A stretch of DNA of 64,000 nt, taken from the NCBI GenBank assembly GCA_951406725.2, contig OX597814.1, positions 159,030,001 through 159,094,000 on the forward strand. Reading direction: 5' to 3'. Under the pieces are notes generated by a model, which was not told the origin of the DNA, did no database searches, and saw nothing but the letters and a program-made list of their open reading frames with translations. The translations under genes were made by a program, and so were the position numbers. Positions 250 to 63,320 of this stretch are shown in pieces. The stretch is from Octopus vulgaris (taxonomy: Eukaryota). The stretch's first letter is position 1. Each line of letters starts with the position of its first letter.

Positions 250-279
250 CAACTGTAGACTCCACTTGAGAACGAGTTT
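250..279 (-). CDS. microexon [10 protein letters not shown] (A type)
   Basis: ctctag acceptor, 30 nt, GTGAGT donor. Confidence 0.85.
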
Positions 280-3200
280 CTAGAGAAAGGCAAACGTAAA
301 TATATTCCCTCAACACTTATGTCACACAATTTATTAAGACAGGAAAAAGGATTACATATATTCAACTCGTATAGAATGAGTGCTTTTCAAATGATAAATT
401 TAAGAAACTACTTCAATTACGCTACTACAAGAAACCACTTTGCAAACCTATCGTCATACTTTAACAGAATGGAAAATGCTTACATGAAGTAAATATTGAT
501 TGATTAGTCATAAGGATTTTACTTTCGTTTTGCTAAAGAATTAACGCAGAAATATATGTTACATATCTAGCTTATTGGTACACATCACGAGGAAAGATTG
601 TTCAGCAGCTTCCCTGTGCGTGTTACTTTTTCCGTTACAACTTCTGTGAAATTAATGAAATATGTAATTAAATATTTGGAAAGATAATTTAAAGCAGAAT
701 GCATAGCTATGTGGCGTTTACATAGGGAATTATATTAGCTAACTACGTCTTCTAGATCTCAGAATTTATCAAACGCAATCATATTCTCAGAGATATATAA
801 ATGTATGAATGTTCATATATATATATATACGTACCTATATACACACGTATCCATATACAAAAAGACACACACAAACATATATATATATGCCGATCTCTGA
901 CTTATGTGTGCATACTTCCTTAGATCTTTACATTTCGATAATATATACATCTCAGCAAAATATACAAATAGAATGTAAAGCTGAAACACTTTTTTATTTC
1001 CTTTTGCAGTGTATTTTTACTTTCTTGCTATTTTCTGTCTTTACACATCTTTCTCCTCATCACATGCTTTGACCATATGAAATTGCGATTTCATACATAC
1101 CAAAGAACATTTCAGCTATATATAAACGCTATCTCCTCGGACATTTCTGCATGGAATCTATATTTCAAATTATGTTTATTTACGTAACAAATTCGACAAA
1201 TGCGTAATTTTAAGTAACTATGTAATTACAAAAATATATATAATTCTGTGTATAAATCAGGATATGAAATAGAAAATTCTCATTTATTTCGAGTTAGAAA
1301 TTGCCGCTTGTCAAATACTTAGTATATAGGCAAGCATGTATTTGTGTCTGTTTGTGTGTTTAATGTCGTACATATTAGTTACTTTTTTCTTTTGCATCTA
1401 CTAATGTGTGTAACTAGCACTTTGCTATACATCCTGAAAAGAACACATGTGTTGAACGGAAGCAATATGTCACACTTTCAATTCTAAAAGAATACCTTTT
1501 CCTTACATTAAAATCAAATTGATTCTTCACATACTTTACAGGTGTCTAATCTATTCTCGAAAATTTGTTGCATTTCCATTCGCTCACTGTTCTCAAATAC
1601 ATTCGGCGATTTTGAAATTCAAACGTTTCAACGACAATGAAGGAAAAGTATAACCTCGACTGTTACAATGAAGCAAGGAAACATTTGACACCAACAACTG
1701 CTAAGTAGCATGTTTGAAATTCACAAAGCAAACACAAGTGTGGAGAAAGCGCAATACAATGTGGAAAAAACGCGGTTATATTTCTGAGTGTTCTGCATTT
1801 TCAGGAATCATACAGCATTATCGTCCGTGGTCTTTTTTTTTAGGACCAGAATGATGATCCATCATCTTTCTGCAAAACCTGTATTTTTCTTAGATATCTT
1901 TGGTTCTACACAGGAGTGTCATTCAAATATTAAAATAAAGATATACTTTATATGTTTAGAATAAGATAAAGTCGTATAACTAAAGATTGTTAGTAATAAA
2001 TTAAATAAAAGAAATTGGGCTGAAATGGTTTAATATATAAGCCACATTCAAGATCATATGTTGAGACGTGAAAAGAATTTGAACTGGGGCTGCGTATTAT
2101 ATTGTGCCTCTTCTAAATATAGGGTATTTAACTCGATTGTTCGTCACTTCTGCAGCGTAGCATATGGAGATTATTCATGTAAATGCGGACCAGGACTCGA
2201 TGCCGGTATTTTATTGTCTTTGTAATTGCATGCACTGTGCTCATATCAATGTATGTGTGTATGTAGGCTGTGTTAGGTGTAATGAAATATATTTTTGCGT
2301 GACTTTGTTTAGCTAGCAATATCTGATATACCTGACAATAGACAGTAAGCCTAAACGTTGAAAGCGAATGAAATTATTGCATGTAAGACTCACCAACAGT
2401 AGATTCAACTTCAGATGGTTTTTCTGAACGAAATCAAAATAAACTACAATAAGCATGTTGCTAAATTATTCGACGGGAAATGATATAATCCGTAAATGTT
2501 TGTTCAAATTTCTTCTTAAGTAATAGACCAACTATGACCTCTGCAAAATGCATTTCTTACAATTATACGCTAATAAGTTAACATCATATATTCGATCTGT
2601 AGTTCAATGAAGCATGTTTATGTCTTCAATATAGATTTATAATTATTTCATAAAACTCCGACTTTCATTAAACAAATGCAGAATTAAGTCGCGAATTTAC
2701 GAGAAAACATTCTTACAGGAAAATATGCGGTCAGAATACATTGGATTTTAAGTAACGCTATGCTTTAATATCAAATGCTCTTACCTATGCGAGTTTCGGT
2801 TTCTCTGATAATTTCTGTGAAATTCAAAACGTAAATCGTTAACTATGTCGTCGGCTATTTCATAATAGTCACGATTTTTAATAACGTTTCATACAATTAA
2901 GTATTACCAAGGAGGTGACGCACGAAAACACGTAGGTAAATATTTCTATCAATTTTGTTTATATAATTTAACATGAAAATGTTATGTAGGAATTTGGTAA
3001 TTTCGATATAAAAGAAAACCACAACAATCAGTTATTAACCGAGACATTATTTTTCGAGTACATCTCCCACTATATATATAGTAATTTCAAAGTTAATAAT
3101 GATGTACTATAACTAGTAATCATAAGAGTTTTGTTAAATTAAAACTGTACCAAATTAGGAGACACTTACCAACTGTGGCTTCGGCCTCAGATGGTTGTTC

Positions 3201-4735
3201 TGAATATGGAATGAAAGACATTATCATCAGCTTTTGCATCACATACAGATATAATATACGTAGACAGATAACCAAACATTCATTCACAACAATACACCTA
3301 CCTATTTTAAAGATATATTTCATAAAGCTATGCAAAATAATGCGGGACAATATATTATCTTGATTTGAAAGTGTTTTCAGTGTGACAATATATGTTCATT
3401 CCATCATTTGCAAAGGAGTCAACAAACAGTAACTTTTGTAAAAGCGACGTCGCCTTTGACATATTGCAAGCATATATCAACTTTACTACATTCATTTCGA
3501 TTAATATGTTACGCTTTCCAAACAAATTATAGCTAGCTAGTTAAACAGAAACCTAGTTCTATCGAGATAAGTTCGTAAACTGAAGATCTCTCACCTTTAG
3601 GACGCTCGTCCTGTTGCACAACATCTGTGAAATAATTAAATGATATATCAATTTCATGCTGATCAACACATGACTAATCTCTACAAATATATCAATCTAC
3701 TTTTGCAATTGCAAAGCTTTTCAAAAACCGAATGCCCTTTGCATGATTCGCTTTATTGTTTCTCTACGATTTCATTTTACACATTTAAAGCGCAGATAAA
3801 ATATATCAAACTATTTATTGCAATTACTATTTTACACGGTAGTGCGATGTGAATATATTTTGAGACGTGTTACTTTCTTTCAAATAAAGTTTCTCTCCAA
3901 TTAATCATACGCACTTCAATTATAACATGATAAATTTACACAATATACTTGAGATGTAGGAACAGACACAGTTTACAAGGTATTATACTGGAATGCGATA
4001 CAGTAAAACAGCATCTCAATCTTTTACATGCTATCGTTTGTATATTACTTATTATCTTATTTCTTAATGAATCATTATTCCAATTTCAACAAGACTTTGG
4101 AAAACCTCTCCAATTCCAAGTTAACTCAGCGACAAGCATAAGCAGGAAATCACGAAACTAATCTCTCACTCACCAACTGTAGACTCCACTTGAGAACGAG
4201 TTTCTAGAGAAAGGCAAACGTAAATATATTCCCTCAACACTTATGTCACACAATTTATTAAGACAGGAAAAAGGATTACATATATTCAACTCGTATAGAA
4301 TGAGTGCTTTTCAAATGATAAATTTAAGAAACTACTTCAATTACGCCACTACAAGAAACCACTTTGCAAACCTATCGTCATACTTTAACAGAATGGAAAA
4401 TGCTTACATGAAGTAAATATTGATTGATTAGTCATAAGGATTTTACTTTCGTTTTGCTAAAGAATTAACGCAGAAATATATGTTACATATCTAGCTTATT
4501 GGTACACATCACGAGGAAAGATTGTTCAGCAGCTTCCCTGTGCGTGTTACTTTTTCCGTTACAACTTCTGTGAAATTAATGAAATATGTAATTAAATATT
4601 TGGAAAGATAATTTAAAGCAGAATGCATAGCTATGTGGCGTTTACATAGGGAATTATATTAGCTAACTACGTCTTCTAGATCTCAGAATGTGTCAAATGC
4701 AATCATGTTCTCAGAGATATATAAATGTATGAATG

Positions 4736-4774
<39 letters not shown>

Positions 4775-4818
4775 GTACCTATATACACGCGTATCCATAT
4801 ACACAAAGACACACACAA

Positions 4819-4852
<34 letters not shown>

Positions 4853-7800
4853 CGATCTCTCACTTATGTATGCATACTTCCTTAGATCTATACATTTCGA
4901 TAATATATACATCTCAGCAAAATATACAAATAGAATGTAAAGCTGAAACACTTTTTTATTTCCTTTTGCAGTGTATTTTTATTTATTGCTATTTTCTGTC
5001 TTTACACCTCTTTCTTCTCATCACATGCTTTGACCATATGAATTTGCGGCTTCATACATACCAAAAAACATTTCAGCTATATATAAATGCTATCTCGTCG
5101 GACTTTTCTGCATGGAATCTATATTTCAAATAATGTTAATTTACGTAAAAAATTCGGCAAATGCGTAATTTTAAGTAACTATGTAATTACAAAAATATAT
5201 ATGATTCTGTGTATAAATCAGGTTATGAAATAGAAAATTCTCATATATTACGAATTAGAAACTGCTGCTTGTCAAATACTTAGTATATAGGCAAGCATGT
5301 ATTTGTGTCTGCTTGTGTGTTTAATGTCGTACATATTAGTTACTTTTTTCTTTTGCCTCTACTAATGTGTGTAACTAGCACTTTGCTATACATCCTGAAA
5401 AGAACACATGTGTTGAACGGAAGTAATATGTCACAGTTTCAATTCTAAAAAAATACCTTTTCCTTAAATTAAAATGAAATTGATTCCTCACATACTTTAC
5501 AGTTGTTTAATCTATTCTCGAAAATTTCTTGCATTTCCATTCGCTCAGTGTTCTCAAATACCTTCGGCTATTTTGAAATTCAAACGTTTCAACGACAAAG
5601 AAGGAAAAGTAAAACCTCGACTGTTACAATGAAGCAAGGAAACATTTGACACCAACAACTGCTAAGTAGCATGTTTGAAATTCGCAAAGCAAACACAAGT
5701 GTGGAGAAAGCGCAATGCAATGTGGAAAAAAACGCGATTATATTTCTGAGTATTCTGCATTTTCAGGAATCTTAAAGCATTACCGTCCATGGTCTTTTTT
5801 TTTAGGACCAGAATGATGATCCATCATCTTCTGCAAAACCTGTATTTTTCTTAGATTTCTTTAGTTCTACACAGGAGTGTCATTCAAATATTAAAATAAA
5901 TATATTCTTTATATACTTAGAATGCGATAAGGTCGTATAAATAAAGATTGTTAGCAATAAATTGAATAAAAGAATTTGGGCTGAAATGGTTTAATATACA
6001 AGCCACATTCAAGAGGATATGTTGCGACATGAAAAGAATTTGAACTGGGGCTGCGTATTATATTGTGCCCCTTCTCAATATAGGATATTTGACTCGATTG
6101 TTCGTCACTTCTGCAGCGTAACATATGGAGATTATTCATGTAAATGCGGACCAGGAATCGGTGCCGTTATTTGATTGTCTTTGTAATTGCATGCACAGTA
6201 CTCATATCAATGTATGTGTGTATGTAGGCTGTGTTAGGTGTAATGAAATATATTTTTGCGTGACTTTTTTTAGCTAGCAATATCTGATATACCTGACAAT
6301 AGACAGTAAGCCTAAACGTTGAAAGCGAATGAAATTATTGCATATGAGACTCACCAACAGTAGATTCAACTTCAGATGGTTTTTCTGAACGAAATCAAAG
6401 TAAACTACGATAAGCATGTTGCTAAATTATTCGACGGGAAATGATATAATCTGTAAATGTTTGTTCATATTTCTTCTTAAGTAATAGACCGCCAATGACC
6501 TTTGCAAAATGCATTTCTTACAATTATACGCTAATAAGTTAACATTATTTATATTCGATCTGTATTTCAATGCCTTCAATATAGATTTAGAATTATTTGA
6601 TAAAGCAACGCGTTCACTAATTAAATGCAGAATTCGCGGATTTACGAGAAAACATTCTTACAGGAATGTATGCGGTCAGTATATATTAATTTTAAGTAAC
6701 GCTATGCTATAATATCAAATCTTCTTACCTATGCGAGTTTCGGTTTCTCTGATAATTTCTGTGAAATTCAAAACGTAAATCGTTAACTATGTCGTCGATC
6801 ATTTCATAAAAGTCACGATTTTTAATGACGTTTCATACAATTAAGTATTACCAAGGAGGTGACGCACGAAAACACGTAGGTAAATATTTCTATCAATTTT
6901 GTTTATATAATTTAACATGAAAATGTTATGTAGGAATTTGGTAATTTCGATATAAAAGAAAACCACAACAACAAGTTATTAACCGAGACATTATTTTTCG
7001 AGTACATCTCCCACTATAAATATATAGTAATTTCAAAATTAATAATGATGTACTATAACTAGTAATCATAAGAGATTTGTTAAATTAGAACGGTACCAAA
7101 TTAGGAGACACTTACCAACTGTGGCCTCGGCCTCAGATGGTTGTTCTGAATATGGAATGAAATACACTATCATCAGCTTTTGCATCACATACAGATATAA
7201 TATACGTAGACAGATAACCAAACATTCATTCACAACAATACACCTACCTATTTTAAAGATATATTTCATAAAGCTATGCAAAATAATGCGGGACAATATA
7301 TTATCTTGATTTGAAAGTGTTTTCAGTGTGACAATAAATGTTCATTCCATCATTTGCAAAGGAGTCAACAAACAGTAACTTTTGTAAAAGCGACGTCGCC
7401 TTTGATATATTACAAGCATATATCAACTTTACTTCATTCATTTCGATTAATATGTTACGCTTTCCAAACAAATTATAGTTAGCTAGTTAAACAGAAACCT
7501 AGGTCTATCGAGATAAGATCGTAAACTGAAGCTCTCTCACCTTTAGGACGCTCGTCCTGTTGCACAACATCTGTGAAATAATTAAATGATATATCAATTT
7601 CATGCTGATCAACACATGACTAATCTCTACAAATATATCAATCTACTTTTGCAATTGCAAAGCTTTTCAAAAACCGAATGCCCTTTGCGTGATTCGCTTT
7701 ATTCTTTCTATACGATTTCATTTTACACATTTAAAGCGCACATAAAATATATCGAAATATTTATTGCAATTACTATTTTACACGGTAGTGCGATGTGAAT

Positions 7801-8677
7801 ATATTTTGAGACGTTTTATATTCTTTCAAATAAAGTTTCTCTGCAATTAATCATACGCACTTCAATTTTAACATGATAAATTTACACAATATATTTGAGA
7901 TGTAGGAACAGACACAGTTTACAAGGTCTTATACTGGAATGCGATACGGTAACACAGAATCGCAATCTTTTACATGCTATCGTTTGTATATTACTTATTA
8001 TCTTATTTCTTAATGAATCATTATTCCAATTTCAACAAGACTTTGGAAAACCTCTCCAATTCCAAGTTAACTCAGCGACAAGCATAAGCAGGAAATCACG
8101 AAACTAATCTCTCACTCACCAACTGTAGACTCCACTTGAGAACGAGTTTCTAGAGAAAGGCAAACGTAAATATATTCCCTCAATTTATTAAGACAATTTA
8201 TTAAGACAGGAAATTATATTAAATATATTCAACTCGTATAGAATGAGTGCTTTTCAAATGATAAATTTACGAAACTACTTCAATTACGCCACTACAAGAA
8301 ACCACTTTGCAAACCTATCGTCATACTTTAACAGAATGGAAAATGCTTACATGAAGTAAATATTGATTGATTAGTCATAAGAATTTTACTTTCGTTTTAC
8401 TAAAGGATTAACGCTGAAATATATGTTACATATCTAGCTTATTGGTACACATCACGAGGAAAGATTCTTCAGCAGCTTACCTGTGCGTGTTACTTTTTCC
8501 GTTACAACTTCTGTGAAATTAATGAAAAATGTATTAAATATTTGGAAAGATAATTTAAAGCAGAATGCATAGCTATGTGGCGTTTACATAGGGAATTATA
8601 TTAGCTAACTACGTCTTCTAGGTCTCAGAATTTGTCAAACGCAATCATATTCTCACAGATATATAAATGTATGAATG

Positions 8678-8740
<63 letters not shown>

Positions 8741-11700
8741 CCATTCGCTCACTGTTCTCAAATACCTTTCGGCGATTCTGAAATTCAAACGATTCAACGA
8801 CAATGGAGGAAAAGTAAAACCTCGACAATTAAGCAAGGAAACATTTGACACCAACAACTGCTAAGTAGCATGTTTGAAATTCGCAAATCAAACACAAGTG
8901 TGGAGAAAGCGCAATGCAATGTGGAAAAAAACGCGATTATATTTCTGAATATTCTGATTTTCAGGAATCTTAAAGCATTACCGTCCGTGGTCTTTTTTTT
9001 TAGGACCAGAATGATGATCCATCATCTTTCTGCAAAACCTGTATTTTTCTTAGATTTCTTTAGTTCTACACAGGAGTGTCATTCAAATATTAAAATAAAT
9101 ATATTCTTTATATATTTAGAATGCGATAAGGTCGTATAAATAAAGATTGTTAGTAATAAATTAAATAAAAGAAATTGGACTGAAATGGTTTAATATACAA
9201 GCCACATTCAAGAGGATATGTTGCGACATGAAAAGAATTTGAACTGGGGCTGCGTATTATATTGTGCCCCTTCTCAATATAGGATATTTGACTCGATTGT
9301 TCGTCACTTCTGCAGCGTAACATATGGAGATTATTCATGTAAATGCGGACCAGGAATCGGTGCCGTTATTTGATTGTCTTTGTAATTGCATGCACAGTAC
9401 TCATATCAATGTATGTGTGTATGTAGGCTGTGTTAGGTGTAATGAAATATATTTTTGCGTGACTTTGTTTAGCTAGCAATATCTGATACACCTGACAATA
9501 GACAGTAAGCCTAATCGTTGAAAGCGAATGAAATTATTGCATATGAGACTCACCAACAGTAGATTCAACTTCAGATGGTTTTTCTGAACGAAATCAAAAT
9601 AAACTACGATAAGCATGTTGCTAAATTATTCGACGGGAAATGATGTAATCTGTAAATGTTTGTTCATATTTCTTCTTAAGTAATAGACCGCCAATGACCT
9701 TTGCAAAATGCATTTCTTACAATTATACGCTAATAAGTTAACATTATTTATATTCGATCTGTATTTGAATGCCTTCAATATAGATTTATAATTATTTGAT
9801 AAAACAACGCGTTCACTAAACAAATGCAGAATTCGCGAATTTACGAGAAAACATTCTTACAGGAATGTATGCGGTCAGTATATATTGAATTTTAAGTTAC
9901 GCTATGCTATAATATCAAATCTTCTTACCTATGCGAGTTTCGGTTTCTCTGATAATTTCTGTGAAATTCAAAACGTAAATCGTTAACTATGTCGTCGATC
10001 ATTTCATAAAAGTCACGATTTTTAATGACGTTTCATACAATTAAGTATTACCAAGGAGGTGACGCACGAAAACACGTAGGTAAATATTTCTATCAATTTT
10101 GTTTATATAATTTAACATGAAAATGTTATGTAGGAATTTGGTAATTTCGATATAAAAGAAAACCACAACAATAAGTTATTAACCGAGACATTAGTTTTCG
10201 AGTACATCTCCCACTATAAATATATAGTAATTTCAAAATTAATAATGATGTACTATAACTAGTAATCATAAGAGATTTGTTAAATTAAAACGGTACCAAA
10301 TTAGGAGACACTTACCAACTGTGGCCTCGGCCTCAGATGGTTGTTCTGAATATGGAATGAAAGACATTATCATCAGCTTTTGCATCACATACAGATATAA
10401 TATACGTAGACAGATAACCAAACATTCATTTCACAACAATACACCTACCTATTTTAAAGATATATTTCATAAAGCTATGCAAAATAATGCGGGACAATAT
10501 ATTATCTTGATTTGAAAGTGTTTTCAGTGTGACAATAAATGTTCATTCCATCATTTGCAAAGGAGTCAACAAACAGTAACTTTTGTAAAAGCGACGTCGC
10601 CTTTGATATATTACAAGCATATATCAACTTTACTACATTCATTTCGATTAATATGTTACGCTTTCCAAACAAATTATAGTTAGCTAGTTAAACAGAAACC
10701 TAGGTCTATCGAGATAAGTTCGTAAACTGAAGATCTCTCACCTTTAGGACGCTCGTCCTGTTGCACAACATCTGTGAAATAATTAAATGATATATCAATT
10801 TTATGCTGATCAACACATGACTAATCTCTACAAATATACCAATCTACTTTTGCAATTGCAAAGCTTTTCAAAAACCGAATGCCCTTTGCGTGATTCGCTT
10901 TATTCTTTCTGTACGATTTCATTTTACACATTTAAAGCGCACATAAAATATATCGAAATATTTATTGCAATTACTATTTTACACGGTAGTGCGATGTGAA
11001 TATATTTTGAGACGTTTTATATTCTTTCAAATAAAGTTTCTCTCCAATTAATCATCCGCACTTCAATTTTAACATGATAAATTTACACAATATATTTGAG
11101 ATGTAGGAACAGACACAGTTTACAAGGTATTATACTGGAATGCGATACGGTAACACAGCATCTCAATCTTTTACATGCTATCGTTTGTATATTACTTATT
11201 ATCTTATTTCTTAATGAATCATTATTCCAATTTCAACAAGACTTTGGAAAACCTCTCCAATTCCAAGTTAACTCAGCGACAAGCATAAGCAGGAAATCAC
11301 GAAACTAATCTCTCACTCACCAACTGTAGACTCCACTTCAGAACGAGTTTCTAGAGAAAGGCAAACGTAAATATATTCCCTCAATTTATTTAGACAATTT
11401 ATTAAGACAGGAAAATATATTAAATATATTCAACTCGTATAGAATGAGTGCTTTTCAAATGATAAATTTACGAAACTACTTCAATTACGCCACTACAAGA
11501 AACCACTTTGAAAACCTATCGTCATACTTTAACAGAATGGAAAATGCTTACATGAAGTAAATATTGATTGATTAGTCATAAGAATTTTACTTTCGTTTTA
11601 CTAAAGGATTACCGCTGAAATATATGTTACATATCTAGCTTATTGGTACACATCACGAGGAAAGATTGTTCAGCAGCTTACCTGTGCGTGTTACTTTTTC

Positions 11701-14700
11701 CGTTACAACTTCTGTGAAATTAATGAAATATGTAATTAAATATTTGGAAAGATAATTTAAAGCAGAATGCATAGTTATGTGGCGTTTACATAGGGAATTA
11801 TATTAGCTAACTACGTCTTCTAGGTCTCAGAATTTGTCAAACGCAATCATATTCTCAGAGATATATAAATGTATGAATGCTCATATATATATATATATAG
11901 TTTCATTCGCTCACTGTTCTCAAATACCTTCGGCGATTTTGAAATTCAAACGTTTCAACGACAATGAAGGAAAATTAAAACCTCGACTGTTACAATGAAG
12001 CAAGGAAACATTTGAAACCAACAACTGCTAAGTAGCATGTTTGAAATTCGCAAAGCAAACACAAGTGTGGAGAAAGCGCAATACAATGTGGAAAAAACGC
12101 GGTTATATTTCTGAGTGTTCTGCATTTTCAGGAATCTTAAAGCATTACCGTCCGTGGTCTTTTTTTTTTAGGACCAGAATGATGATCCACCATCTTTCTG
12201 CAAAACCTGTTTTTTTCTTAGATTTCTTTAGTTCTACACAGGAGTGTCATTCAAATATTAAAATAAATGTATTCTTTATATATTTAGAATGAAATAAGGT
12301 CGTATAAATAAAGAATGTTAGTAATAAATTAACTAAAATAAATTGGCCTGAAATAGTTTAATAAACAGGCCACATTCAAGATAATATAGTGCAACATGTA
12401 AAGAATTTGACCTGGGGTTCCGCATTATGTTTATGCCTCTTCTTACCATAGGATATATGTCTCGATAGCTCGGTTCTTCTGCAGCGTAGTATATGGAAAT
12501 TTTTCATGTAAATGCGGACCAGGATTCGGTGCCGGTATTTGATTGTCTTTGTAATTGCATGCACTGTGCTCATATCAATGTATGGGTGTATGTAAGCTGT
12601 GTTAGGTGTAATGAAATATATTTTTGCGTGACTTTGTTTAGCTAGCAATATCTGATATACCTGACAATTGACGGTATGCTTAAACGTTGAAAGCGAATGA
12701 AATTATTGCATATGAGACTCACCAACAGTAGATTCAACTTCAGATGGATTTTCTGAACGAAATCAAAATAAACTACAATAAGCATGTTGCTAAATTATTC
12801 AACGGGAAATGATATAATCTGTAAATGTTTGTTCAATTTTGTTCTTAAATAATAGACCGCCTATGACCTTTGCGTAATGTATTTCTTACAATGATACGCT
12901 AATAAGTTAACATTATATATATTCGATCTGTAGTTCAATGGAGCATGTTTATGCCTTCAATATAGATTTATAATTATTTCATAAATCTCCGACGTTCACT
13001 AAACAAATGCAGAATTAATTCGCGAATTTACGAGAAAACTTTCTTACAGGAAAATATGCGGTCACTATATATTGAATTTTAAGTTACGCTATGCTATATC
13101 AAATCTTCTTACCTATGCGAGTTTCGGTTTCTCTGATAATTTCTGTGAAATTCAAAACGTAAATCGTTAACTATGTCGACGGCCATTTCGTAAAAGTCAC
13201 GATTTTTAATGACGTTTCATACAATTAAGTATTACCAAGGAGGTGACGCACGAAAACACGTAGGTAAATATTTCTATCAATTTTGTTAATATAATTTAAC
13301 ATGAAAATGTTATGTAGGACTTTGGTGATTTCGATATAAAAGTAAACCACAACAATAAGTTATTAACCGAGACATTATTTTTCGAGTACATCTCGAACTA
13401 TATATATAGTAATTTCAAAATTAATAATGATGTACTATAACTAGTAATCATAAGAGATTTGTTAAATTAGAACGGTACCAAATTAGGAGACACTTACCAA
13501 CTGTGGCTTCGGCCTCAGATGGTTGTTCTGAATATGGAATGAAAGACAATATCATCGGCTTTTGCACCACATACAGATATAATATACGTAGACAGATAAC
13601 CAAACATTCACTCACAATAATACACCTTACGATTTTAAAGATTTATTTCATAAAAGTATGCAATAAAATGCAGAAAATATATTGTCTTGAATTGAAAGTG
13701 TTTTCAATGTGACAATATATGTTCACTGCCATCATTTACAAGGGAGGAAACAAACAGTAACTTTTGGTAAAAGCGACGTCGAATTTGATATATTGCAAGC
13801 ATATATCAATTTTACTACATTCATTTCGATTAATATGTTTCGCTTTTCCATACATATAATTGTTAGGTAGGTAAACAAAAACGTAGGTCTATCGAGATAA
13901 GTTCGTAAACTGAAGCTCTCTCACCTTTAGGACGCTCGTCCTGTTGCACAACATCTGTGAAATAATTAAATGATATATCAATTTCTTGCTGAGAACTGAT
14001 GAACACATCACTAGTCTCTACAAATATATCAATCAACTTTTGCAATTGCAAAGCTTTTCAAATACCGATTGCCCCTGCATGTTTCGCCTTATCATTTCTG
14101 TACGATTTCGTTTTATACATTTGAAGCGCAAATAGAATATATCGAAATATTTATTGCGACTATTATTTTACATGGTAGTGCGATATGAATATATTCTGCG
14201 ATGAGTTACTTTCTCTCCAATTAATCATAGGCACTACAATTTTAACATGATAAATTTACACAATATATTTGAGATGCGGTAAAGTAACCGAGAATTCATT
14301 AATATATAAGTAACATTTTATCTCTAGTAATATATCCATGTAATTTTGCAATCTTAATATTGTTTACTTGCTGCATTGTCCTTATTCTTTCAGTTCGATT
14401 TCAGTTTTTATATTTTAAGCCCTGAGAAATTATATCGAAATATTTTTTGCAATTGTTATTTCCACGGTAATACTCTGTGAATATATTTAGAAACGATTTC
14501 GTTTTTTACCACTAATACTTTTCTCTAATTAACCATACGTACTTCTGTTTTAATATGATAAATTTAATGATTTTACTTTAGATTCAGGAGCCGTCAAAAT
14601 TTACAGCGTATATTTCTAATAATGGCTAAAGCAATACAGCATCTCAATCTTTTACATACTATCTTTCCTATAGTCCTCATTATCTTACTTCGTAACGCAT

Positions 14701-15300: not shown

Positions 15301-15346
<46 letters not shown>

Positions 15347-15348
15347 AT

Positions 15349-15419
<71 letters not shown>

Positions 15420-18055
15420 GATCTCCACCGTGTGTATGTATACACAAAACTATCTACACATTTTTTTATTATATAAATGTGGGTTAATTCTTTTATGAAT
15501 CTTAAATTACAATTTTCATTGTAAATCAGGTCACCGTCATTGCATCAATTATCATATGACAATGGACGTGATGGAAAAATTTCTAGAAATTCATAATCAC
15601 CGACGTTATTAATTGACGTTTTATACTGTGGTCAAAATGAGAAACATGTGAGCAATTACAAGACAACTCCTCAAATGTTTACATCACATGCTTCTGCTGC
15701 AGCATATATGCTAAGAAATATTTCAGCTATCTTTAATCGTAATCTCCCTGGACTTTTCCCTATGATTTTTACATTTCAAATAATTTTTACTAACATAACA
15801 AATGCGACGAAATCATAAATTTATAAATATATCAAATTCGGCATGTAAATTAGTATATTAAACGAACACTTTGCATTTATTTGGAGTATAAATAGCCTCA
15901 TGTCTATTATTAGTATTTAAGCAAGTGTGCATTTTTATCTGTTTGTGTTTTTGTATGTTGTGTGTTTTAATATTTCCTTTTTAGCTTTACTTATGTGTAA
16001 CAATCATTTTGCAAAACATCACGCAAAGAATACATGTGTTGAACGGAAACGATATATTACAGGTGAAATTTATATAAATGCAAATCTTTCTCACATTACA
16101 AACAAATTAATTCCTCAAATACTTTACACGTGCATTGTTTTCATATTTCCATTGACGCTCTGACTCCTAATGTTACAGGATTTTTTTTTATTCAGACTGA
16201 GATGACGATAAGCAGAAAGGAAAAAAATACCCGTCACACCGAAGCAAAAAAACATTTGACATCAACAACCGCTAATTAGCAAACTTAATATTTGTCAGAC
16301 ATGCGGCTTTTAAGAGATTGTGACTTGACACATGAAAATAGCACAAAATATTCGTACAAATTCTGCATTATCAAGCGTCTTATTATGCATATCATTCTAT
16401 CGTTGGTATATTTTGGAAATGCCTATAATTCAGGACATTGTTAAGTCTTCTCCCTCCACTCCCTATATATATATATAAGTATATAAGGAGACGTGTATGA
16501 ACTGTCCTCTCTGTTTGCGCAGTCTTCATTATTGCTATATTATCGTAACATATTATTCTGTACAGTGTAACAATATCTATAATTTCAATGATACTACAAA
16601 TCAATGATGATCAATCATGAATGTATATCTAAAAATATATTTCAGCTAATACATCAATATTAATTTTACAGTGTCTTATCGTATCTTTCGTGCACCTTAA
16701 AATTCGAATTCGTGCAATTCTTTCAACATAAATTTTTCCTATCCCAGAGAAAATACACAAATTCTTATTCCCAGTGTTATTAAATCATGCCGTGCAATGT
16801 TCATATATTTTGAAAAGGGCTAACTATATTTCAGTTAACAGCTAATCAACCATTAATGACCTAATGACAGTTTAAACTCTATAAATTTTAGATGTATTTT
16901 CTAGCAAAACCATCGACAAATATCATTGTAGTGCAATAAGGTAAATATCATTAAAATAAATCTATTAGTCACTTTTATTATTATATCATTCAATATATGT
17001 TGTACCCAGTCACTAATTTAAAATGCTAAATTTGTATAGGACAAGCTTCCTTACATCATCAATAACGTAAAATGTCCATATTAAATTTAAACTTTTAACT
17101 AGATCCAGCAGTAGCAAGAAATCGTGAAATACTCTCTCACTCACTAAGCTTAGATTCCACTTCAGAACGTGTTTCTAGTGAAATTCAAGCGTAAATATAT
17201 ATCATCACTTACATCATACAGAACAGAGTGACAAACGGATTATATTTACATAGATGAGATTATTTGAGTGTGATTTTTTTCAATGTATTTAATTTCGAAA
17301 AATATTATCTGTAACACCAGCAGAATACAAGTTGAAAAATTATAGTTTTTAGAATTGAAAATGTTTCAAAAGAAAATGTAAAACGAGGAGATTTAAAAAT
17401 TTGGGATACATTTGCACTAAAGAAATATCGGGAAAAAGACAACTGATATACTTTTAGTCTTACTGAATGCACAGAAGAATTCATCTGTAGCTTATTTGTA
17501 CGAGCTGCACTGACCATAGAAGAGGGCTTCTAGGTAAGTTAATGTTTTTCATGCGTACCACATGGCCAACCCACCTCAGTTGCACTTTGATAAATAAACT
17601 ATGCCTGCATAATCACATCTTGCAAAAATCATCTGTTGAGAACTCGTCCTGTCATTTGGTGTTACACTTTATGTTTCTTATATTACAGTCACGGCAGGAA
17701 TTCAATGTCAGCCCTTCGCCTTCTGCAACATTTCAGCAGTTCATTTACCCGTTGCTCTCTCCCATTGCAGCTCATTTCCGGAATATACCCATTTACGTAC
17801 AATATCTCATTTACACTTCAGTTCATTTGACTGTCAACTATACGATTGGTCGTGTTAGACGCAGCGCTGTTCGCCTCAAAGGTGGCTTCAAAAATTACAT
17901 ATCCCCAGTCCCAATTTCCATGATACGTTAGGGACTAGAATCCGCCAAACAGACGGATTACATGCCGCTTAGTCGAATTAGACCATCATTTACTCCACAA
18001 ATGTTTTGTCATCAATGCTGCATTTTCCAGTATCACTTGTTTCAACATAGCTGTA

Positions 18056-18131
<76 letters not shown>

Positions 18132-21100
18132 GTATAAACTATAGCATTTTAATCCTGAGTAAAGCCTGGTATCTCTGCTAGTCATTAGTAATCTTATATA
18201 ACTGATGTTGCAAAGCTGCAAATGCAATAAAACTATTATTTTCTATAACAAACGAACGATAATACTTCTGATACTAACAACCGCTTATTAACAGATTAAG
18301 AATTCGTCAAAGATACTACGAGTGAATTGAAAGTGTAATACCCTGTGATAATAAGGCGGAAGTAAGTCAAAAGTTAGTATTGTCATTTTCTTCGAAACTA
18401 ACTTTCGTTAAAGTCGATGCTGTTTTAAATGTGTATGTTTGAAACTTGTAATGCATATTGCATTGGAACAATTTATCAGCGTGCACTTTATGACCTGATA
18501 GCTCATCACTTCTAGTCTGTGTAGTGTGCATCCATTTTATGTAAATCAGAATTTTATATCAGTCTTGTTGAACGCTTTTGTGGCTGTGTGTGTATGATTA
18601 TATGCAGTATTGTGTGCATGGAAGCATGTGGAAATATAATGGATGTAGGTTTTATGCATAAGCATTTTTGCATGACTTGGCATAGCTTGCTATACCCGAT
18701 AACTGACAATGAAGCCAAACATCGAAGCGAGTAGAAATTATTGCAAATTAAACTCACCCACGGTAGATTCAACTTCAGACGGTTTTTCTGAACAAATGTT
18801 AAAATATATTAGCTATAAGCAAGTTGTTCAACTATTCATGAATACACGTGATTCTATTCGATATATTTACATAAAAATATACAGTTTTATGTATTTAAAT
18901 TGTAATATTACCCAAGTAGAATGTTAAATGATCAAACTGACATTAACATATTAACAATACATCTTCTTAGAAATATTAAATGGAGCGTTTCAGATGTTAA
19001 AAACGATTACGTTTAATCAGAAAATTTTCGGAGTAATTCAGAAATATTTCCTAATTATATTTTCACATGAAAACCTTCGATATAATAAATATTGTAGAAT
19101 ATCTAGCGTTAAAATTAGTGGAGATTATATTGATATAGCAAATGCGCTTACCTATGCGAGATTCGGTTTCTTGAATAATTTCTGTGAAATTAACAAAGGA
19201 ATCAATTAACTATTGTTTTCATTATTTCGAGAAAAACCCCCAGCGAATCTTAAACTGTGTTGTACCAGATAATTTATGAATGAATCTACACGGAAATATA
19301 CATCAATATGTACGTTCACATGAATTTCTTAACACGGTTTTTATTATGGCAAGCATGTTGTAATATTTTATATTACATATTAGTTCATATTAAGGCAAAC
19401 TAACATTTTACTAATCATCCCAATATAAACAACAATTACTAAAATAAAAAGTAATTTTATTAGAATAATAATAATAATAATAACAGTTGCTCTATTTTAA
19501 GGAGTCGGTTTAGGAGACACTTACCAACTGTGGCTTCAACTTCAGAAGGTTCTTCTGAATGTGAATAAATAAAAATTATGCTATTAGATTTTTACACCTC
19601 ATAGAAATGAAAACAAAAATAAAAATATAGGAAGAGCACACTTCCAATATTTGCCTAAACTTCCATAGTTTTCGGGATATTATAGGATACAATGATCTGT
19701 CCTTATGCATTGTTATATTCACTGTTTTCAACTAAGTATGGAACATTAAGTATATATTCCAGTAACGTGTTTATGTATCCTATTCCAGGAATAGCAACAA
19801 ATTGATATAAATTGATTTTATGCTAGAAACAATTTTGAATTATTATTTATATTTTGAAATAATAGTTGTGCATTCACATTTTATAAAATTCATATGAATG
19901 AAAATTAAAAGAGTAATTTGGAAACAATTACAGAAACAGTTTCTAATAAAAGTTCATATTTATTCTAGTATTATCGAAAATATAACCTTGCTCACCTTTG
20001 GGACGCTCTTCCTGTGTTACAATATCTGTGAAATTTAATAAAGTGAAATTGCGATTTATAAATACAATTGCAATTGTACATCTATAAATTTGACTGCTAA
20101 AATCGCTATTCCTGCTAGTATTTGAATATAAATTTATAATATATTACTGTTTATAACTGTACGTATTGCTTTTGTAAGCAAGAATATTTCAAGCAACTTG
20201 ATTCAATATTATGTATGTTTTAAACATAGGCACATTGTATTTATATATAAAAAAAACATTGATATCTAATTAAATTGCATTGTGGTAAGTACTTTTATAG
20301 TTAAACGATCGACACATTTTAGTATATGTTCTTGCTAATTCAAAATACAAATGTTGTAAAGTACTAAAAAAAACAAATACACAATATACGAATTACGTGA
20401 CTAGAACCACCCTAATATAACACACAAAAACGACTAACGCTGTACGACATCCACAGCAACTTTTTCAGAATATTCGCGTTATATGATATTAGTCCAAAAT
20501 ATACGGTATCTGACAAAAGGTAATATATATTGTAAATTGTCTACGAAATAGTTCACTAGAAATGCTTATACGTGTTTTTATTCATAAGTTATCGCCTAAA
20601 CTTTACAAGATACTGTAAAACATCATTCACCAATCAAAGATTATATAAAATTCTTTGGAAAAGTATCCACACGAATGTTCAATACATTTATTCTCTCTCA
20701 ACAACGTAAGAACGACACAAAACTATACGCAGACAAGCAGAAACAAAGAATTATTGCAACAATCTCTCACTCACCAACTGTAGATTCCACTTCAGAACGT
20801 GTTTCTATAAAAAGGTGAACGTAAAAATATAAACCCATCAGTTTCATCATACAAACATTAAATATATAGTGGATCGAATAGTAATTTTAGTTTACTCTTA
20901 GAAATCATTTATTTCCGAAATACAATATTTTAAACTAGATGATTAAAGTATTATAAAAATGAAAGTAAAATTGAAAATACTTTCATAATGGGTGTACAAA
21001 TTTAGATGTATGAAATTTAGTATATTTCAAAACGAATATCGCAGAATTTTCTATTTATAGTCATGTTGATACATTCGCTATGAAACAATTCTGTAGTAAC

Positions 21101-37384: not shown

Positions 37385-37850
37385 ATATATATATACACAT
37401 ATACATACATGTATACATGCATATGAACATACATATACACATATATACATATATATACATGTATTTGATATACATACATATATGTATGTAAGACTGGACG
37501 TCTTCCATTCTGATTAAACTTTAGCGGACTAAGTTCATCTACCATGGTACTAGAGCTTTAATGATATGGAAAATTAGTACATAACCCATGTGCAGATGGA
37601 GTAAAATTAAACTATTTAATTATATATATATAACAATTACAATTTTAGAAAATTAGTTGTCGCAGAAAAGTTTCAGATTTTAATACATCGTGTTACTTTT
37701 TCTGTTACAATTTCTGTGGAATTAACAAAATATGTAGTTAAATATTTGAAAATTACTATTATAATTACTTGTTTATACGTTTCTCTAATTAGTTGGTGCA
37801 TTGATTCTCGATTCGATATGTAGAATACGTAAATGCATATAAATAGGATA

Positions 37851-40763: not shown

Positions 40764-40854
<91 letters not shown>

Positions 40855-43800
40855 TTCAAATTATTACTTAAGATTTATAGATGATTTTGAAAAAATTACA
40901 TATCCAAATTATATTAACTTTCAGGCCTATTGCTATAATATCGCAACATCTGAAAAATTAATAAGATGTATTGCAAATGATTCTCACGAACTTATGCATA
41001 TTTAATTATCAATGATATTGAAATGATACATGATAGAAGTTAATTTTAAAATTTATTTCAGTTTACACGGTACACGACAAATTTGTGTGAATCACTTTTC
41101 TTTCAGATGCATTGTTGAACAGACATACGAGCAAATACGCGTTGAAAACATTTAAAACATTCATTTTAAATACTGTTATTTGGTAACTCATATTATGAAA
41201 TCAGCAATGTTAATTTTGATTCTTGGCAACATTAAATCCAATATGCATTTATAAAATGAATGAAAAATCATCCAATATATTTGGGAATATATTGGTTGAC
41301 TCAATCATTCGGTAAATCGCAACAAAAGCTACACGGCATTCACGTTTCCATACGAACATATTTATCAACGGTAACACTATTTATTACATGGTCAGTATGA
41401 TATGAAGCTGTATTGTATTAAAATGGCGTATATGTTTCTGATTTCTCAACAAAATTCTTATGTGGAAAAATAACATATGTGATTATTTTACTAATAATAT
41501 ACTAAACGAAAATTAATTTTTTCTGTAACACATAATCGACTAATCGAATAGAGCGCATTCTATCCTTCTCATATGTAACGAAGCAAATTTTCCAACAACT
41601 ATAATTAACAAGAAACGATAAAATGACATACGAAGACATCAAAGTGACACTGAGCAACAAGCACAAGCAAGTAAGTCATTTAAGAATAATCTCTCACTCA
41701 CCAACTGTAGATTCCACCTCAGAAAGTTTTGCTAATCAAAGAATAAAGGCAAATATATTTCCATCAGATTAATCGCATAGAGAAAATAAGATCGACGAAC
41801 GCTAAATATACGAAGGTAGGCTGAAAAGTTCATAGGCTGTCAATGAAGGAGTGACATCTTGCATACATTAATTTCAATACTCCTTAATACTGCATGTGGA
41901 GGCGCAATGGCCCAGTGGTTAGGGCAGCGGACTCGCGGTCATAGGATCACGGTTTCGATTCCCAGACCGGGCGTTGTGAGTGTTTATTGAGCGAAAACAC
42001 CTAAAGCTCCACGAGGCTCCGGCAGGGGATGGTGGTGATCCCTGCTGTACTCTTTCACCACAACTTTCTCTCACTCTTACTTCCTGTTTCTGTTGTACCT
42101 GTATTTCAAAGGGCCGGCCTTGTCACTCTCTGTGTCACGCTGAATATCTCCGAGAACTACTTTAAGGGTACACGTGTCTGTGGAGTGCTCAGCCACTTAC
42201 ACGTTAATTTCACGAGTAGGCTGTTCCGTTGATTCGGATCAACCGGAACCCTCGTCGTCGTAATCGACGCACTGCTTCCATCATCAATAATAACTTCATT
42301 GATTTTATCCGGGTAAACTGACACCTGACTGTTCAAATTAACTAGCAGCGACTTCTCTTGAAAATGGGCAAAATTTCGCTCTGTGGTGTTATGAAGTACG
42401 TGCAGAAAAGGGTCTGGTCCCCAAGGAAATTCATGCCAACGTGGTTGCTACTGCTGCATTAGAGAATCAGCTCCAGCTTCAACAGTGCTATAGTAGGCAA
42501 CTGAATTTATGAGGGGTAAAAGAGAGTCTTGAAAATGGCCCAATGTCTAGATGTCCTGCAACTGCCACCACCGAAGACAACATTGATCATGTTCACCACA
42601 TGTTGACGGATAACAGACGATTGGCGATAAATCAAGCAATCAATACTATTAGCATATCCCGTGAGAGAGTTGAGAATATTCTGCACAATGAACTTGGTAT
42701 GACGAAGGTTTCAGCTCGATGAATGCACATCAGGCCGATCACATCACGGAAAAACCTGACATTTGCTTGAGGCAGATCCAGCTGGCTTCTTCGAACGTTT
42801 CATAACCCAGAATATGTTGGCTTCATCATATTAAGCCAGAAACAAAGAGAGAATCTATGCAGTGGAAACACCCCTTATCATCTACTTCAAAAAGGTCAAG
42901 GTCGTTTCATCTGCAGGGAAGGTGATGGTCTGGGGGTGCAAAAGATATTGCTTATTGACTACCCTCGAAAGGGCCACGCAATCAATGGGTAGTACTATAC
43001 CAGCTTGTTGGGGCGGTTACAAAAATCTATCAAGATCAAACACCCGGGAAAACTGACAAAAGGGGTCTTGATTCAGCGGGACAATGCTCTAGCACACAAG
43101 TCCTTTGTCTCAATGATTGCTGTGTATGACTGTGGCTTCGAACTGATTGATCACCCTCCCTATTCTCCTGATTTGTCCCCATCTGACAATCATCTGTTAC
43201 TCAACATGAAAAAATCACTTAGCTGGGAAGCAGTATCGCAGTGATGAAAGAAGTGGGTGAACCGCAAGGGAGGCTATGTTGAAAAATAAACTTCATTTGG
43301 TAACATTCTATCAGAGTATGTTTGTCAGCCTATGAACAATTCAGCTGACCCTCGTACTGAAGAAATACATGTGTGTCTTGTAAGCGTTTTGAAATTTGTT
43401 ATACTCCAAATAAATTTCGGTTATACCCAAAATATAAAAGTTTTATAAAGATGAGTTTCTACGAGAATTACAATTCATTATATAGTAAGAGTAGATGGAA
43501 ATTTTAGTATGTAAATATTGTGAAAAACTTAGAGATTTTATATCTATATTGTAAAGAACAATACTGAGCTGAATTATTTTTTAGTTAAAACGTTTCTGGA
43601 ATTAATAAACTCGTAGTTCAACAGCTACTTTATAAATGAATACACAATAATGTGGCGATTATCTGAAGAGATATGTGAGCAAGTAGTTGATACAAAGTTA
43701 CAAAATCTCGAATCAATACTTCGTTAAACATCTCGAAACAGAAAAGTTTTTAGCTTTAAATTTCTTTAAATCGAAAAGCCGGTGTAGTTAACATTGACAT

Positions 43801-45666: not shown

Positions 45667-48600
45667 AAATAGTTCCTATCATAGAAAAACAACGCGCTAA
45701 AACAATTTATTTTGTCGCGTGAAATACGCATTACAAAAACAATTGAGAATTATTGCCAAAATAGAGAAGAGGAAAGGAATTAGGAAGTAATTTTTATCTG
45801 GAAACAAATCATAAAACTGTTAGAATATCATCATAACAAAAGTATATAATTATGTTAATAGAAGTTTAGAGAAAGAAATCTCAAGCCGTTTTACATATGC
45901 GAGTTATATATTTCTAAACAATTTCTACAGAATAACTGGATATTTTTTACAATTTGTCAGCTCGGTTATATTAGCACATGCGTACATATAAAAGCGAAAA
46001 ACCTTGATAATCACTCATACGCACAAATATAATTGTTTATTGGTGTGTGTTTTATATCTAAATCTGTGTAGAATATGTAAATTTGTGTAGAATTTGAAAT
46101 TTTTGCATGGACTGTTAATAAAAATCGATGTGAATTAGTTGTTGATAATATGGTTCATTAATATAATAATGTGATCGCATATATTATATATTTACTTATT
46201 CTATAATATATCTCAGATTTTACAATATTAGCGACTTGTTAGGAATGTTTAAATTGTATGGAGTAAATATCAACGTAAATAGCAACATCCGTCCTCTAAT
46301 ATTAGTACATAATTTAAAAAAACAGAATATCACGAACGTAATAATACATGTATTACACTTCTGAACGAGAACATTATACATCAGTCATATTTGCTATGAC
46401 GGAGAAGCAAAAAGCAAGCAACACGTTAACATGTTCTGCTTGTTTCAATGTTACAAATTACCTAATATTAAGTTGATTGCTATATAAAATGAGCTCTACA
46501 TTTTCATATATTAACCAACGGAGTTAAGCGCACATCAACTGAATAAATTAGCCGGCAGTATATATTTAGAATGTTCGGTATTATATTTTTACAGGATTAA
46601 ACGCTTGTGCATGCATAGCGTAAGCGTCAAGTCCTCATGATCTAGATGCAAGCAACTTCGGATTTCTTCTGTTTAAGAACATCAATTTACACATAGACAG
46701 TAAAGCGAAATATAAAAGCACGGGTGGGGATGTCTTGTATATCACTCACCATATGTGGATTCAACATCTGATAGTTTTTCTGGGGGAAATATAAAATAAG
46801 ATCCAATAATTGTCTAACTGGAATATATATATCTAAGCATACGATGAACACACACACCCTCATTTCAACCAACATTTACATATAAATAATTTGCATGTTG
46901 GTGTCTATGTTTTCTTATTAATATATTTTAAGGAAATAAAAGTGTGCCAGTTATTGAATGGTAGCGATTCAATCACAACAATGATGTGTATGGAATATTA
47001 AAAGAGGAGACTTTCATATTGAACAATGGAAATTCTTTGAATGAAAATCGAAATTCGTTTCAAGAATAGTCACAGAATGGGCCCTAGATAAGTAACTTGC
47101 TTTTGGGGAATACTTGATTTAATGAGAGTGCACTGATATAGTTGTTAGCACAAGTGGGCTCTGATCGAGCGGATCTATAACCAGGCACGTTCAAGTCATG
47201 GCTATCCCTCTGAGTGTGTGTATGTGGTGAGGGGTGGTCATGCATCCCAAACTACATTCTCCAATTTGTTTCATATTAGGGATAAATGTAGATTAGGGAA
47301 AATTTAAATGTTATTTCAAGGAAGTTCTGCAAGCATGAGTGGCGTATGTGTGTGAGAGAGAGAGAGGGTTTGTGTGTGTATGTAACGTTCGATTAGTTGC
47401 AAGTTTGGTGTAACTGTTCTAGGAATAAGTATTACATATCCATAATCCAAGTCATGTATCTTTCTAAAACCATCCGTGGAATGAATAAAGGTCAGCAGAT
47501 CATTTATTTCGATTGTAAGTTTCTTGTTACGTGATACTGAAACATTATTTTCCATATAAATAAAATTCAATATATATATGCAAATAGTTTATTAAATGCA
47601 GCATTTTATAGATTATTGCTTGTAAATAATATGGAGCTGTACATCAGAAAATATATCCCAAAGGAAGATTTACATTTCGTAATTACTACGAATAAAAGTT
47701 AAATAGAAGATATAGCGACAAATCTAAAACAATCTTTCAGGCTTCTGAAGTAAATCTATTGAAAATATTGCTTACCTCCACGTACTATTGTTTCCGAAAT
47801 GGTTTCTGTGAATTTAACCAAATTTATGATTAGCTCTTTATATAACATATCTTAATTCATTACATAACCAAATATTTACATTATGTTGTCAATATGTATG
47901 TATACTAAACAAATATTACTTCTGGAAGAATTAAACCAAATTTGAAATTACAGGTACAAACCGGAAATATAATTGTCTAAAATTTAATCTGAAACGGAAA
48001 TGTTATGTTTTGTGGTTGTTTTTCCTTTTAATCTCAAGCTAATACGTTAGGGACACAATAAATTTGTATTTGTAAAAATACTATCCAAATAATCAAATAT
48101 AATCGAAAGATTGCAGTTTATAAGTAAACTCACCGATCGTTTCAGCATGCGGCCGATCTAGATGGAAATTAAAAACCGTTTTATATATTTTTAAAAAAAT
48201 CTCTTTGCCACAAGCTTCAACACTTAGTATTATAATGAGATAGGATATTCTACGTAATTTTGCCTTCTTTAAGATATTTCAAGTCAAATATATGTAACTG
48301 ACATACAAGAAAGTTAAAAATACAGTTCATTACGCAAATTGCATAGAACAGAATGAAGGAATGAAAACTTGATTTCAGTTACTGTAATAGTATTAATGAA
48401 TATATTTAAGATGTAGGAAGCTTCATATAAGCAAAAAACGCTTGATATACATTCGAAGTTTCAATAATTTTAACGAATGCTTACCTATCCAATATTCTGG
48501 TTCTGTTAGATGTTCTGTTAAATTAACCGAATATTCAATTAAACAATTTAAAAATGAATCTTAAGTTAATACGGTACTGAATTTCACAACAGATTACGGT

Positions 48601-50919: not shown

Positions 50920-50988
<69 letters not shown>

Positions 50989-53312: not shown

Positions 53313-53376
<64 letters not shown>

Positions 53377-54712: not shown

Positions 54713-54782
<70 letters not shown>

Positions 54783-55765: not shown

Positions 55766-55835
<70 letters not shown>

Positions 55836-55917
55836 TATATATATTTTATTTTTATGTTTTGGTTTATGTTTTTCACTGTTTGATTTGCCTAATAGTGGTT
55901 TTATCTCTAATTTAATT

Positions 55918-55953
<36 letters not shown>

Positions 55954-57041
55954 CACATTATATATGTATATATACATTGTATACCTATGTATATGTATAT
56001 ATAGAGAGAGACATATTCACACACACATATTCACACACACACGCACACATATATCTATGATACTAGAGGTTTTCATTTCTGACTACTCTTTAGCGGATCA
56101 TAAACATCTCTCATGGCTGGACTTTATCTTATTTGAAAATTGATACTCACGGGATTTATAAATCAAATATACTTAAGCAATTGCAGCATCAACTACATTA
56201 ATCAAAACAATCGCAAATTAAAAAGGAATATCGCAGGAAAATGTCAGATTTTAATACATATTTTGAAAAATCTTCTGAATAGCATACCTGTACGAGTTAC
56301 TTTCTCCGTTACAATCTCTGTGGAATTAACGAAACATGTAGTTAGATATTTGAAAGAAACTTTATAAGAGTATGCAACGTTGTTTATATGCAGAATATTA
56401 TGCAAATTTTATATCTGCATACTTTTCCATTCGCACATAAGCATACACTGAAAACACCCAATGATAATAAAATCAAGCAGTTATGCTTATGCAGAGATAG
56501 ATCCAGTTTTCCATAAGATAACCAATGTATAACAAAGAATGTGATATACTAGTGCACTATAAACACTGGAGGAAGATCCTGCGTATATATCTGGGCATCG
56601 GCCGATTTTTCAAAAATTGATATTGCAACAACATCGCCAGATTTCGAAATATCCTTAAACGACATGCAACATCGCTAGCCGATTTTATCTGGTGGTTTAA
56701 GGAAGCGCAAACAAAATACGACCTTACATGGTCCATACTTAGATATGCGAGTCCCTACACTATATCCCGGAAATGCCAGATATATACCGAGGAGTCCCTC
56801 TCGATAATGTTAACAAAGGCACATTACAAATAAATTCATTGAACAATTACCCAGATTCCTACACGCAGCTAAACACAAATTCACATATTACCATACCGAC
56901 CATTCATATTTTGATGTATACATGTGGCCACAACTCTTAAAAGACCTGAACTTGAGGAATTATATTCGAATAACTTGTATTTGACATATGATCTTGCAAT
57001 CGATATCCAAATATGTATATTCATATATGTATGTATGTATT

Positions 57042-57094
<53 letters not shown>

Positions 57095-57198
57095 ATGTAT
57101 ATATATTCGTCTATACGTGTGCGTATGCGCGTGAATCTAGTTGTATGTATATACCCATATACTTGGATGTGCGTGTGTGAGCGCGTATGTATATGTGC

Positions 57199-57248
<50 letters not shown>

Positions 57249-58609: not shown

Positions 58610-58643
<34 letters not shown>

Positions 58644-63320: not shown

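Follow-up and report, generated by a model that had tools for sequence, protein, structure and literature searches.

The two-class alternation and 60-residue period of this octopus microexon array are, in our judgement, probably the footprint of tandem duplication, in an array that would encode a predicted disordered, acidic tether similar to a PEVK segment, with a length set by exon skipping; this combined reading is favoured with somewhat better than even confidence. The window analysed here is a stretch of 64,000 nucleotides from Octopus vulgaris, and the array extends beyond it on both sides. It comprises 268 exons over 233 kb, 259 of 30 nt, five of 27 nt and four of 24 nt, from -64,131 to +169,059 relative to the window, with a core from -64,131 to +146,786. 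As all of these lengths are combined with phase 1-1, every exon is frame-neutral. The array holds 2,667 codons, 2,637 of them in exons with intact donors, corresponding to about 2,640 amino acids. Across the 2.8-Gb genome, all 51 matches to one repeat unit lie inside about 200 kb of a single contig.

On the minus strand of the window, 68 phase-1 microexons (66 of 30 nt and two of 24 nt) form an array at 250..63320 with 37 class A exons, 31 class B exons and 676 codons. A six-frame search for the class A motif returned 16 matches, on the minus strand only. In this AT-rich sequence, the minus strand has 57 instances of an AG followed by 30 nt and a strong GT donor and the plus strand has none, and any spacing other than 30 in the range from 12 to 90 nt gave at most 12 matches. 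A weight-matrix scan recovered 66 elements of 30 nt (35 A, 31 B) from 250 to 63320, and two A-like exons of 24 nt at 48134 and 28928 fill out the window set. Exons on the plus strand were ruled out since neither the spacing search nor the weight-matrix scan yielded any. In transcript order, with low coordinates and class, the exons are 63291A, 62556B, 61725A, 61378B, 61047A, 56288B, 54581A, 53833B, 53424A, 52864B, 52496A, 48485B, 48134A (24 nt), 47776B, 46750A, 45327A, 41702A, 40600A, 40254B, 39954A, 37684B (donor lost), 37165A, 36594B, 36152A, 35396B, 35008A, 32015B, 31686A, 29743B, 28928A (24 nt), 28602B, 27665A, 25547A, 23508B, 22745A, 21105B, 20775A, 19996B, 19525A, 19152B, 18758A, 17145A, 15116B, 14796A, 13925B, 13498A, 13113B, 12723A, 11682B, 11321A, 10742B, 10316A, 9929B, 9554A, 8481B, 8120A, 7541B, 7116A, 6729B, 6355A, 4538B (donor lost), 4174A, 3595B, 3170A, 2785B, 2394A, 614B (donor lost) and 250A. 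The first residue is Glu or Asp in 98% of the distinct peptides, probably in part because its codon begins with the G that ends the preceding exon.

A preliminary description of the window had proposed that the two classes alternate almost everywhere once decayed exons are counted. The alternation itself holds, with 62 of 67 window junctions joining opposite classes, whereas 10,000 shuffles averaged 33.7 and never exceeded 51, although the shuffle test overstates the evidence because the exon copies descend from one another. When only 30-nt exons with an intact GT are counted, 52 of 62 junctions alternate. The role of decayed exons was confirmed in part. A B remnant was found in three of the five window breaks: one with an in-frame stop between two A exons (45895..45924, minus strand; score 15.9 versus a null maximum of 12.2), a weak one with a stop (43564..43593, minus strand; score 8.5, 0.017 expected by chance) and a B1 remnant that has lost its donor (25876..25905, minus strand). 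In the other two breaks, the minus-strand A-A introns at 40630..41701 (exons 41702 and 40600) and 17175..18757 (exons 18758 and 17145), neither the matrix scan nor nhmmer detected a B remnant. In the whole array, the nhmmer search for hidden B remnants was positive in two of 15 breaks, one of them shared with the matrix scan, and no A remnant was found in four short B6-B6 introns. The three window exons without a donor are all of type B2 and on the minus strand: the exon at 37684..37713 lacks a GT at +30 and has one at +27, and the exon at 4538..4567 and its tandem copy at 614..643 carry GG instead of GT.

The exon tree also agrees with two classes. With flanks included, the 66 exons fall with A and B on two sides of one branch (SH-aLRT 99), and a tree built from the flanks only retains this branch with an SH-aLRT of 87, subject to long-branch warnings and few columns. 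The further proposal that each class keeps its own splice context is correct for the B acceptors and the donors but not for the A acceptors, which are subtype-specific rather than class-specific. Across the array, the acceptor ends in CACAG in 96 of 133 B exons versus one of 135 A exons, and donor position +6 is T in 134 of 135 A exons versus three of 133 B exons. In the window, the B acceptor TTAATTTCACAG is exact in 11 of 31 B exons, and the donor GTGAGTGAG is present in 10 of 11 ETRS-type exons. The acceptor distance is 0.55-0.66 between A subtypes and 0.35-0.43 between B subtypes, and A acceptors differ about as much from subtype to subtype as from class to class.

The nested periods of 10, 20 and 60 residues were borne out. 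For the 60-residue unit, the period of six exons is real, but the 60-mer given for it is a consensus, and the nearest genomic copy (13954-11321) differs from it by one residue. This copy consists of six minus-strand exons of 10 residues each, in the cycle B3-A2-B1-A1-B2-A3. The B3 exon (13925..13954) was found by the matrix scan, and an RNA contig runs on from it into an A2 exon. The A2 exon (13498..13527, donor GTAAGT) is connected to the B1 exon (13113..13142, matrix scan) by the joint 13142/13498, which has CT..AC ends and is present in X1 and X10. The A1 exon (12723..12752) and the B2 exon (11682..11711) were found by the matrix scan, and the latter is connected to the A3 exon (11321..11350, donor GTGAGTGAG) by the joint 11350/11682 in X1. 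Six complete cycles are present in the window and 28 in the whole array. Self-BLAST shows recent tandem copies of the six-exon DNA unit at 1..14276, 3.2-3.9 kb long and 90-97% identical including introns, and the 60-residue period therefore matches a duplicated six-exon DNA unit. A rare block of B4, a 24-nt A-like exon and B5 lies on the minus strand at 47776..48514, with a second window copy at 28602..29772; it has four copies in the array and an orthologous block in an argonaut gene model.

Longer self-alignments extend this picture to the whole array. A total of 101 self-alignments of at least 1.5 kb were found, 92 in the core and nine in a 5' block (L029:2757 to L031:1643, window +146.8 to +165.6 kb). 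All 92 core alignments are offset by even exon counts, half of them A, and 88 by multiples of six, as counted by eye from pairs that are not independent. In the 5' block, the offset of all nine is a multiple of four exons, of which one in four is A, and an A-B-B-B unit including 27-nt B exons has been copied five times. Alternation is found at 235 of 245 junctions in the core versus 13 of 21 in the 5' block. A two-exon cassette would have been duplicated first and then, repeatedly, a six-exon DNA cassette, while unequal crossing-over between exons of the same class would keep the exon count even. Since the duplication of an even-numbered cassette or crossing-over between like exons would preserve parity, the alternation needs no selection, and the A/B grammar is most likely for the most part duplication history. 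Some observations count against this reading. Donor +6 and acceptor -4 still distinguish the classes across subtypes whose deeper introns have become random, and orphan A exons, taken all together, are more diverged (mean 1.67 differences versus 0.94, P=0.005). Without the eight exons of a conserved A-A block, however, the orphan mean is 1.06 (n=16) versus 1.53 in controls from older regions (n=45; one-sided P=0.90).

These results do not establish the inference that the 20-residue pair is the functional unit. Alternation can arise without selection when an even-numbered cassette is duplicated, a single B has been lost or silenced at 13 core places, orphan A exons outside the conserved block do not decay faster, and only 13 of 21 junctions alternate in the 5' block. 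Breaks of alternation are tolerated, as the A-A adjacencies and the amplified A-B-B-B unit indicate. Among live core exons, there are 13 A-A adjacencies and no B-B adjacency, and every lost or silenced core exon, at 13 places, belongs to class B. This one-sidedness counts against neutral loss, which would not predict such a bias.

The array exons are under purifying selection. The dN/dS values of six subtypes range from 0.14 to 0.48, a rough estimate due to short exons and non-independent pairs, and no stop codon is present in the 262 scored array exons. Contigs from four probable RNA runs of three studies were mapped onto window positions 2300-20100; none of the runs is recorded as RNA, but the spliced joints argue for it. 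Among the 15 joints listed of 36, 11 have GT-AG ends at exact exon boundaries and 13 connect opposite classes; the exons are thus spliced at their exact ends. Two listed joints (2423/19525 and 9585/14796) connect A to A with unknown letters between them, and these may be single skips or hide unmapped exons. Exon skipping was not observed in these short-read contigs, which are unsuited to detecting it, and this absence counts against the length-tuning part of the favoured explanation.

The joined repeat consists of 24% Glu, 16% Thr, 15% Val, 10% Ser, 4.8% Pro and 4.2% Lys, and its net charge of -0.16 and FoldIndex of -0.19 predict disorder. The array would most likely encode a long, acidic and flexible tether or spacer between two Ig runs, like the PEVK spring of titin, and exon skipping would tune its length in steps of ten residues. 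The Pro content is low for a PEVK-type spring and counts against reading the tether as a spring. A search for shorter proteins carrying the repeat found none among 7,994 candidates.

Alternatively, the 20-residue pair could be a structural unit, in which the last two to three A residues and B form a beta-strand and the Pro-containing A residues 1-7 a turn. Successive pairs would then build a beta-meander, or a chain of strands able to zip up with partner domains, and the alternation would be kept by selection. We regard this as unlikely. It agrees with the earlier suggestion of a beta-prone stretch across the A-to-B junction: in an AlphaFold model of 359 argonaut residues, strands of 13-15 residues recur about every 20 residues, begin in the last A residues and extend over B (strand fraction 0.80 for B and 0.31 for A). 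At most positions, 10 of the 12 B segments lie in a strand, compared to one or two of the 15 A segments at positions 3-7. These strands count against a disordered tether, and the best part of the repeat reaches a pLDDT of 50-59, above the Ig domain of the same model. The beta propensity points the same way, being low in A residues 1-7 (0.78) versus 0.94-1.07 in the junction plus B, as do the lack of B-B adjacencies in the core and the argonaut model, which alternates at 39 of 47 junctions. However, the model was computed from a single sequence with a mean pLDDT of 43.6 and no residue above 70, and spurious beta folds are a known product of AlphaFold 2 when it is given repeats, according to the available part of PMC11795689. 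Charged and uncharged residues show no significant alternation in the strand (P=0.11, 0.27 and 1.0), the acidic net charge speaks against the pair as well, and the 5' block contains amplified B-B-B runs. In Foldseek, the 50 best matches listed are all Ig-type chains, aligned over about 70-85 columns, and none covers the repeat; an ESM Atlas search gave no usable match.

A bolder variant would make the gene a cephalopod obscurin with a beta-forming spring of 2,600 residues, in which B exons provide strands and A exons turns, and class-specific splice sites add or drop strand-turn pairs in muscle, thereby tuning length and unfolding force. We consider it improbable.

Another explanation is a splice-site code that enforces pairing, such that A donors (GTRAGT) suit B acceptors (TAAT...CACAG), B donors (GTRAGC/A) suit A acceptors, and skipping removes whole pairs. 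The nearly perfect separation of the classes by donor +6 and acceptor -4, the similarity of B acceptors across subtypes whose exons differ by 36-51%, and the 13 of 15 listed RNA joints between opposite classes would fit such a code. Yet shared ancestry together with ordinary splice-site constraint yields the same pattern, opposite-class joints are expected from genomic order alone, and two of the listed joints run from A to A with unknown letters between them. Moreover, A-A and B-B introns exist in the genome, and all sites are standard GT-AG; we know of no mechanism that makes such sites mutually incompatible. A code of this kind is therefore very improbable. The idea that the array reflects neutral expansion of a repeat, or an artefact of the assembly, and has no protein role under selection, to which copies that are 94-98% identical and several decayed exons might point, is largely refuted and scarcely credible in view of the dN/dS values well below 1, the stop-free exons, the spliced contigs in four probable RNA runs of three studies, and the orthologous subtypes in argonaut and related 10-mers in cuttlefish.

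The array sits between tandem Ig exons on the minus strand. The predicted gene order is an Ig run, the array, a second Ig run with nine 10-residue linker exons, two SH3-like exons, RhoGEF, PH, Ig, a 9-residue repeat in one exon, Ig, about 16 Fn3 exons (L002 to L004), Ig-Ig, kinase, Ig-Fn3 and kinase. Profile searches in 864 kb of flanks matched 53 Ig and 18 Fn3 domains, a count that includes fragments; every match is on the minus strand, with one Ig per 267-nt exon. Pfam profiles matched SH3_2 (L008:78-404, 1.9e-7), RhoGEF (L007:2216-2410, 1.1e-10) and PH (two matches, 1.7e-9 and 4.9e-8), and a second SH3-like exon lies at L008:2955-3119. The first kinase (Pkinase) is encoded by exons in L044, one of which is nearest to MLCK, DAPK and obscurin kinases, and the second lies at L042:2123-2617 (Pkinase, 1.7e-23), with an Ig (L043:3389-3700) and an Fn3 domain (L043:1026-1175) between the two. 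A 44-nt exon (L008:3636-3679, phase 1-to-0) bridges the last Ig and the first SH3 exon, leaving a predicted splice path open between the array and the SH3-RhoGEF module. Judged by this domain order, the host gene is most probably an obscurin/UNC-89 gene. Obscurin is an M-line scaffold, and we know of no titin-like PEVK region in its N-terminal Ig run. The about 16 Fn3 exons and the second SH3-like exon are more than obscurins usually have.

Two sequence features near the domain exons deserve mention. From L011 to L013 (window -74.9 to -99.2 kb), nine Pro-containing linker exons of 30 nt precede near-identical Ig exons, and the array may have originated from linkers of this type. In the same region, several Ig exons are broken, and there are 100 N near -83.1 kb. 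After the PH domain, a single large exon (L005:5514-6575) carries a 9-residue tandem repeat of Pro, Glu, Val, Ala and Lys, which is a second PEVK-like segment of the opposite gene design, with one exon.

The octopus gene shares with obscurin/UNC-89 the SH3-RhoGEF-PH module followed by Ig and Fn3 domains, the encoding of one Ig per 267-nt exon, and the pair of C-terminal kinases that Ig and Fn3 domains separate. It differs in the 268-microexon repeat within the N-terminal Ig run, the two SH3-like exons and the tandem Fn3 exons. Ig domains before RhoGEF are the chordate layout according to PMC12812942, whereas RhoGEF is N-terminal in ecdysozoan obscurins; molluscs go unmentioned in the available part of this review, which also describes the interkinase region of UNC-89 as a measured entropic spring. 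By a hand tally, which is not a curated model, the octopus gene has roughly 370 exons, on par with the 363 given as the largest number in the accessible part of PMC12198301, where Octopus sinensis sequences appear in trees. No paper on this array was found in the literature searched, whose coverage excludes subscription journals; the supplements of PMC12198301 may show the octopus domain layout.

The nearest proteins in the Ig domains are from argonaut (79%) and cuttlefish (63%), both unnamed partial gene predictions. The Argonauta hians model Ahia01_000031300 (P0013), which may miss exons, contains 48 repeat units that belong to the same classes and subtypes, an 8-residue unit among them, and that adjoin the same Ig run directly; it also keeps the A-A pair after the rare block. 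The cuttlefish model (P0001) ends, after homologous Ig domains, in five related 10-mers, which are diverged and without clear alternation.

The array resembles human titin PEVK in its many short frame-preserving exons, its tandem duplication and its low-complexity Glu/Val-rich segment between Ig runs. According to the available part of PMC6469411, titin PEVK has 113 short Pro/Lys-rich exons averaging 76-93 nt, which expand by duplication and tune stiffness via splicing. By contrast, the exons of the octopus repeat are more than twice as numerous, measure 24-30 nt, are rich in Glu, Thr, Val and Ser, form two alternating clades and lie in obscurin, and its combined share of Pro, Glu, Val and Lys is 48% versus an average of 0.79-0.84 per titin exon in that source. 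Schistosome MEGs likewise have runs of symmetric exons of at most 36 nt that can be dropped without a frameshift, but their products carry signal peptides, are secreted or exposed at the surface and show raised dN/dS, as far as PMC8293314 is accessible. The octopus array, with ten-residue paralogous repeats under purifying selection, lies within a giant intracellular protein with Ig, RhoGEF and kinase domains, and MEG membership was therefore rejected. A neural-type microexon programme was also dropped, as few exons have a UGC motif upstream (22 of 135 A and eight of 133 B exons).

At 0.37 nm per residue, the repeat would reach close to 1 micrometre when fully extended. Regulated skipping, if it occurs, would provide octopus muscle with a finely graded tether, which would be relevant to the mechanics of arm and mantle. 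Without pairwise skipping or a beta fold, the A/B grammar is of lesser importance.

Several minor observations concern the introns and splice sites. The introns in L021-L080 and L001-L013 contain many transposon-like remnants, which we take to resemble Tc1/mariner transposases and LINE reverse transcriptases. An imperfect intronic inverted repeat of about 500 nt (77%), mostly AT microsatellite, lies at window 54709-55998. The A3-type donor GTGAGTGAG (e.g. window 11312-11320 and 241-249) contains a second GT four bases on, and 12 candidates with an AG, 34 nt and a GT were found; if used, this second GT would cause a frameshift, with truncation of the protein or transcript decay as possible consequences.
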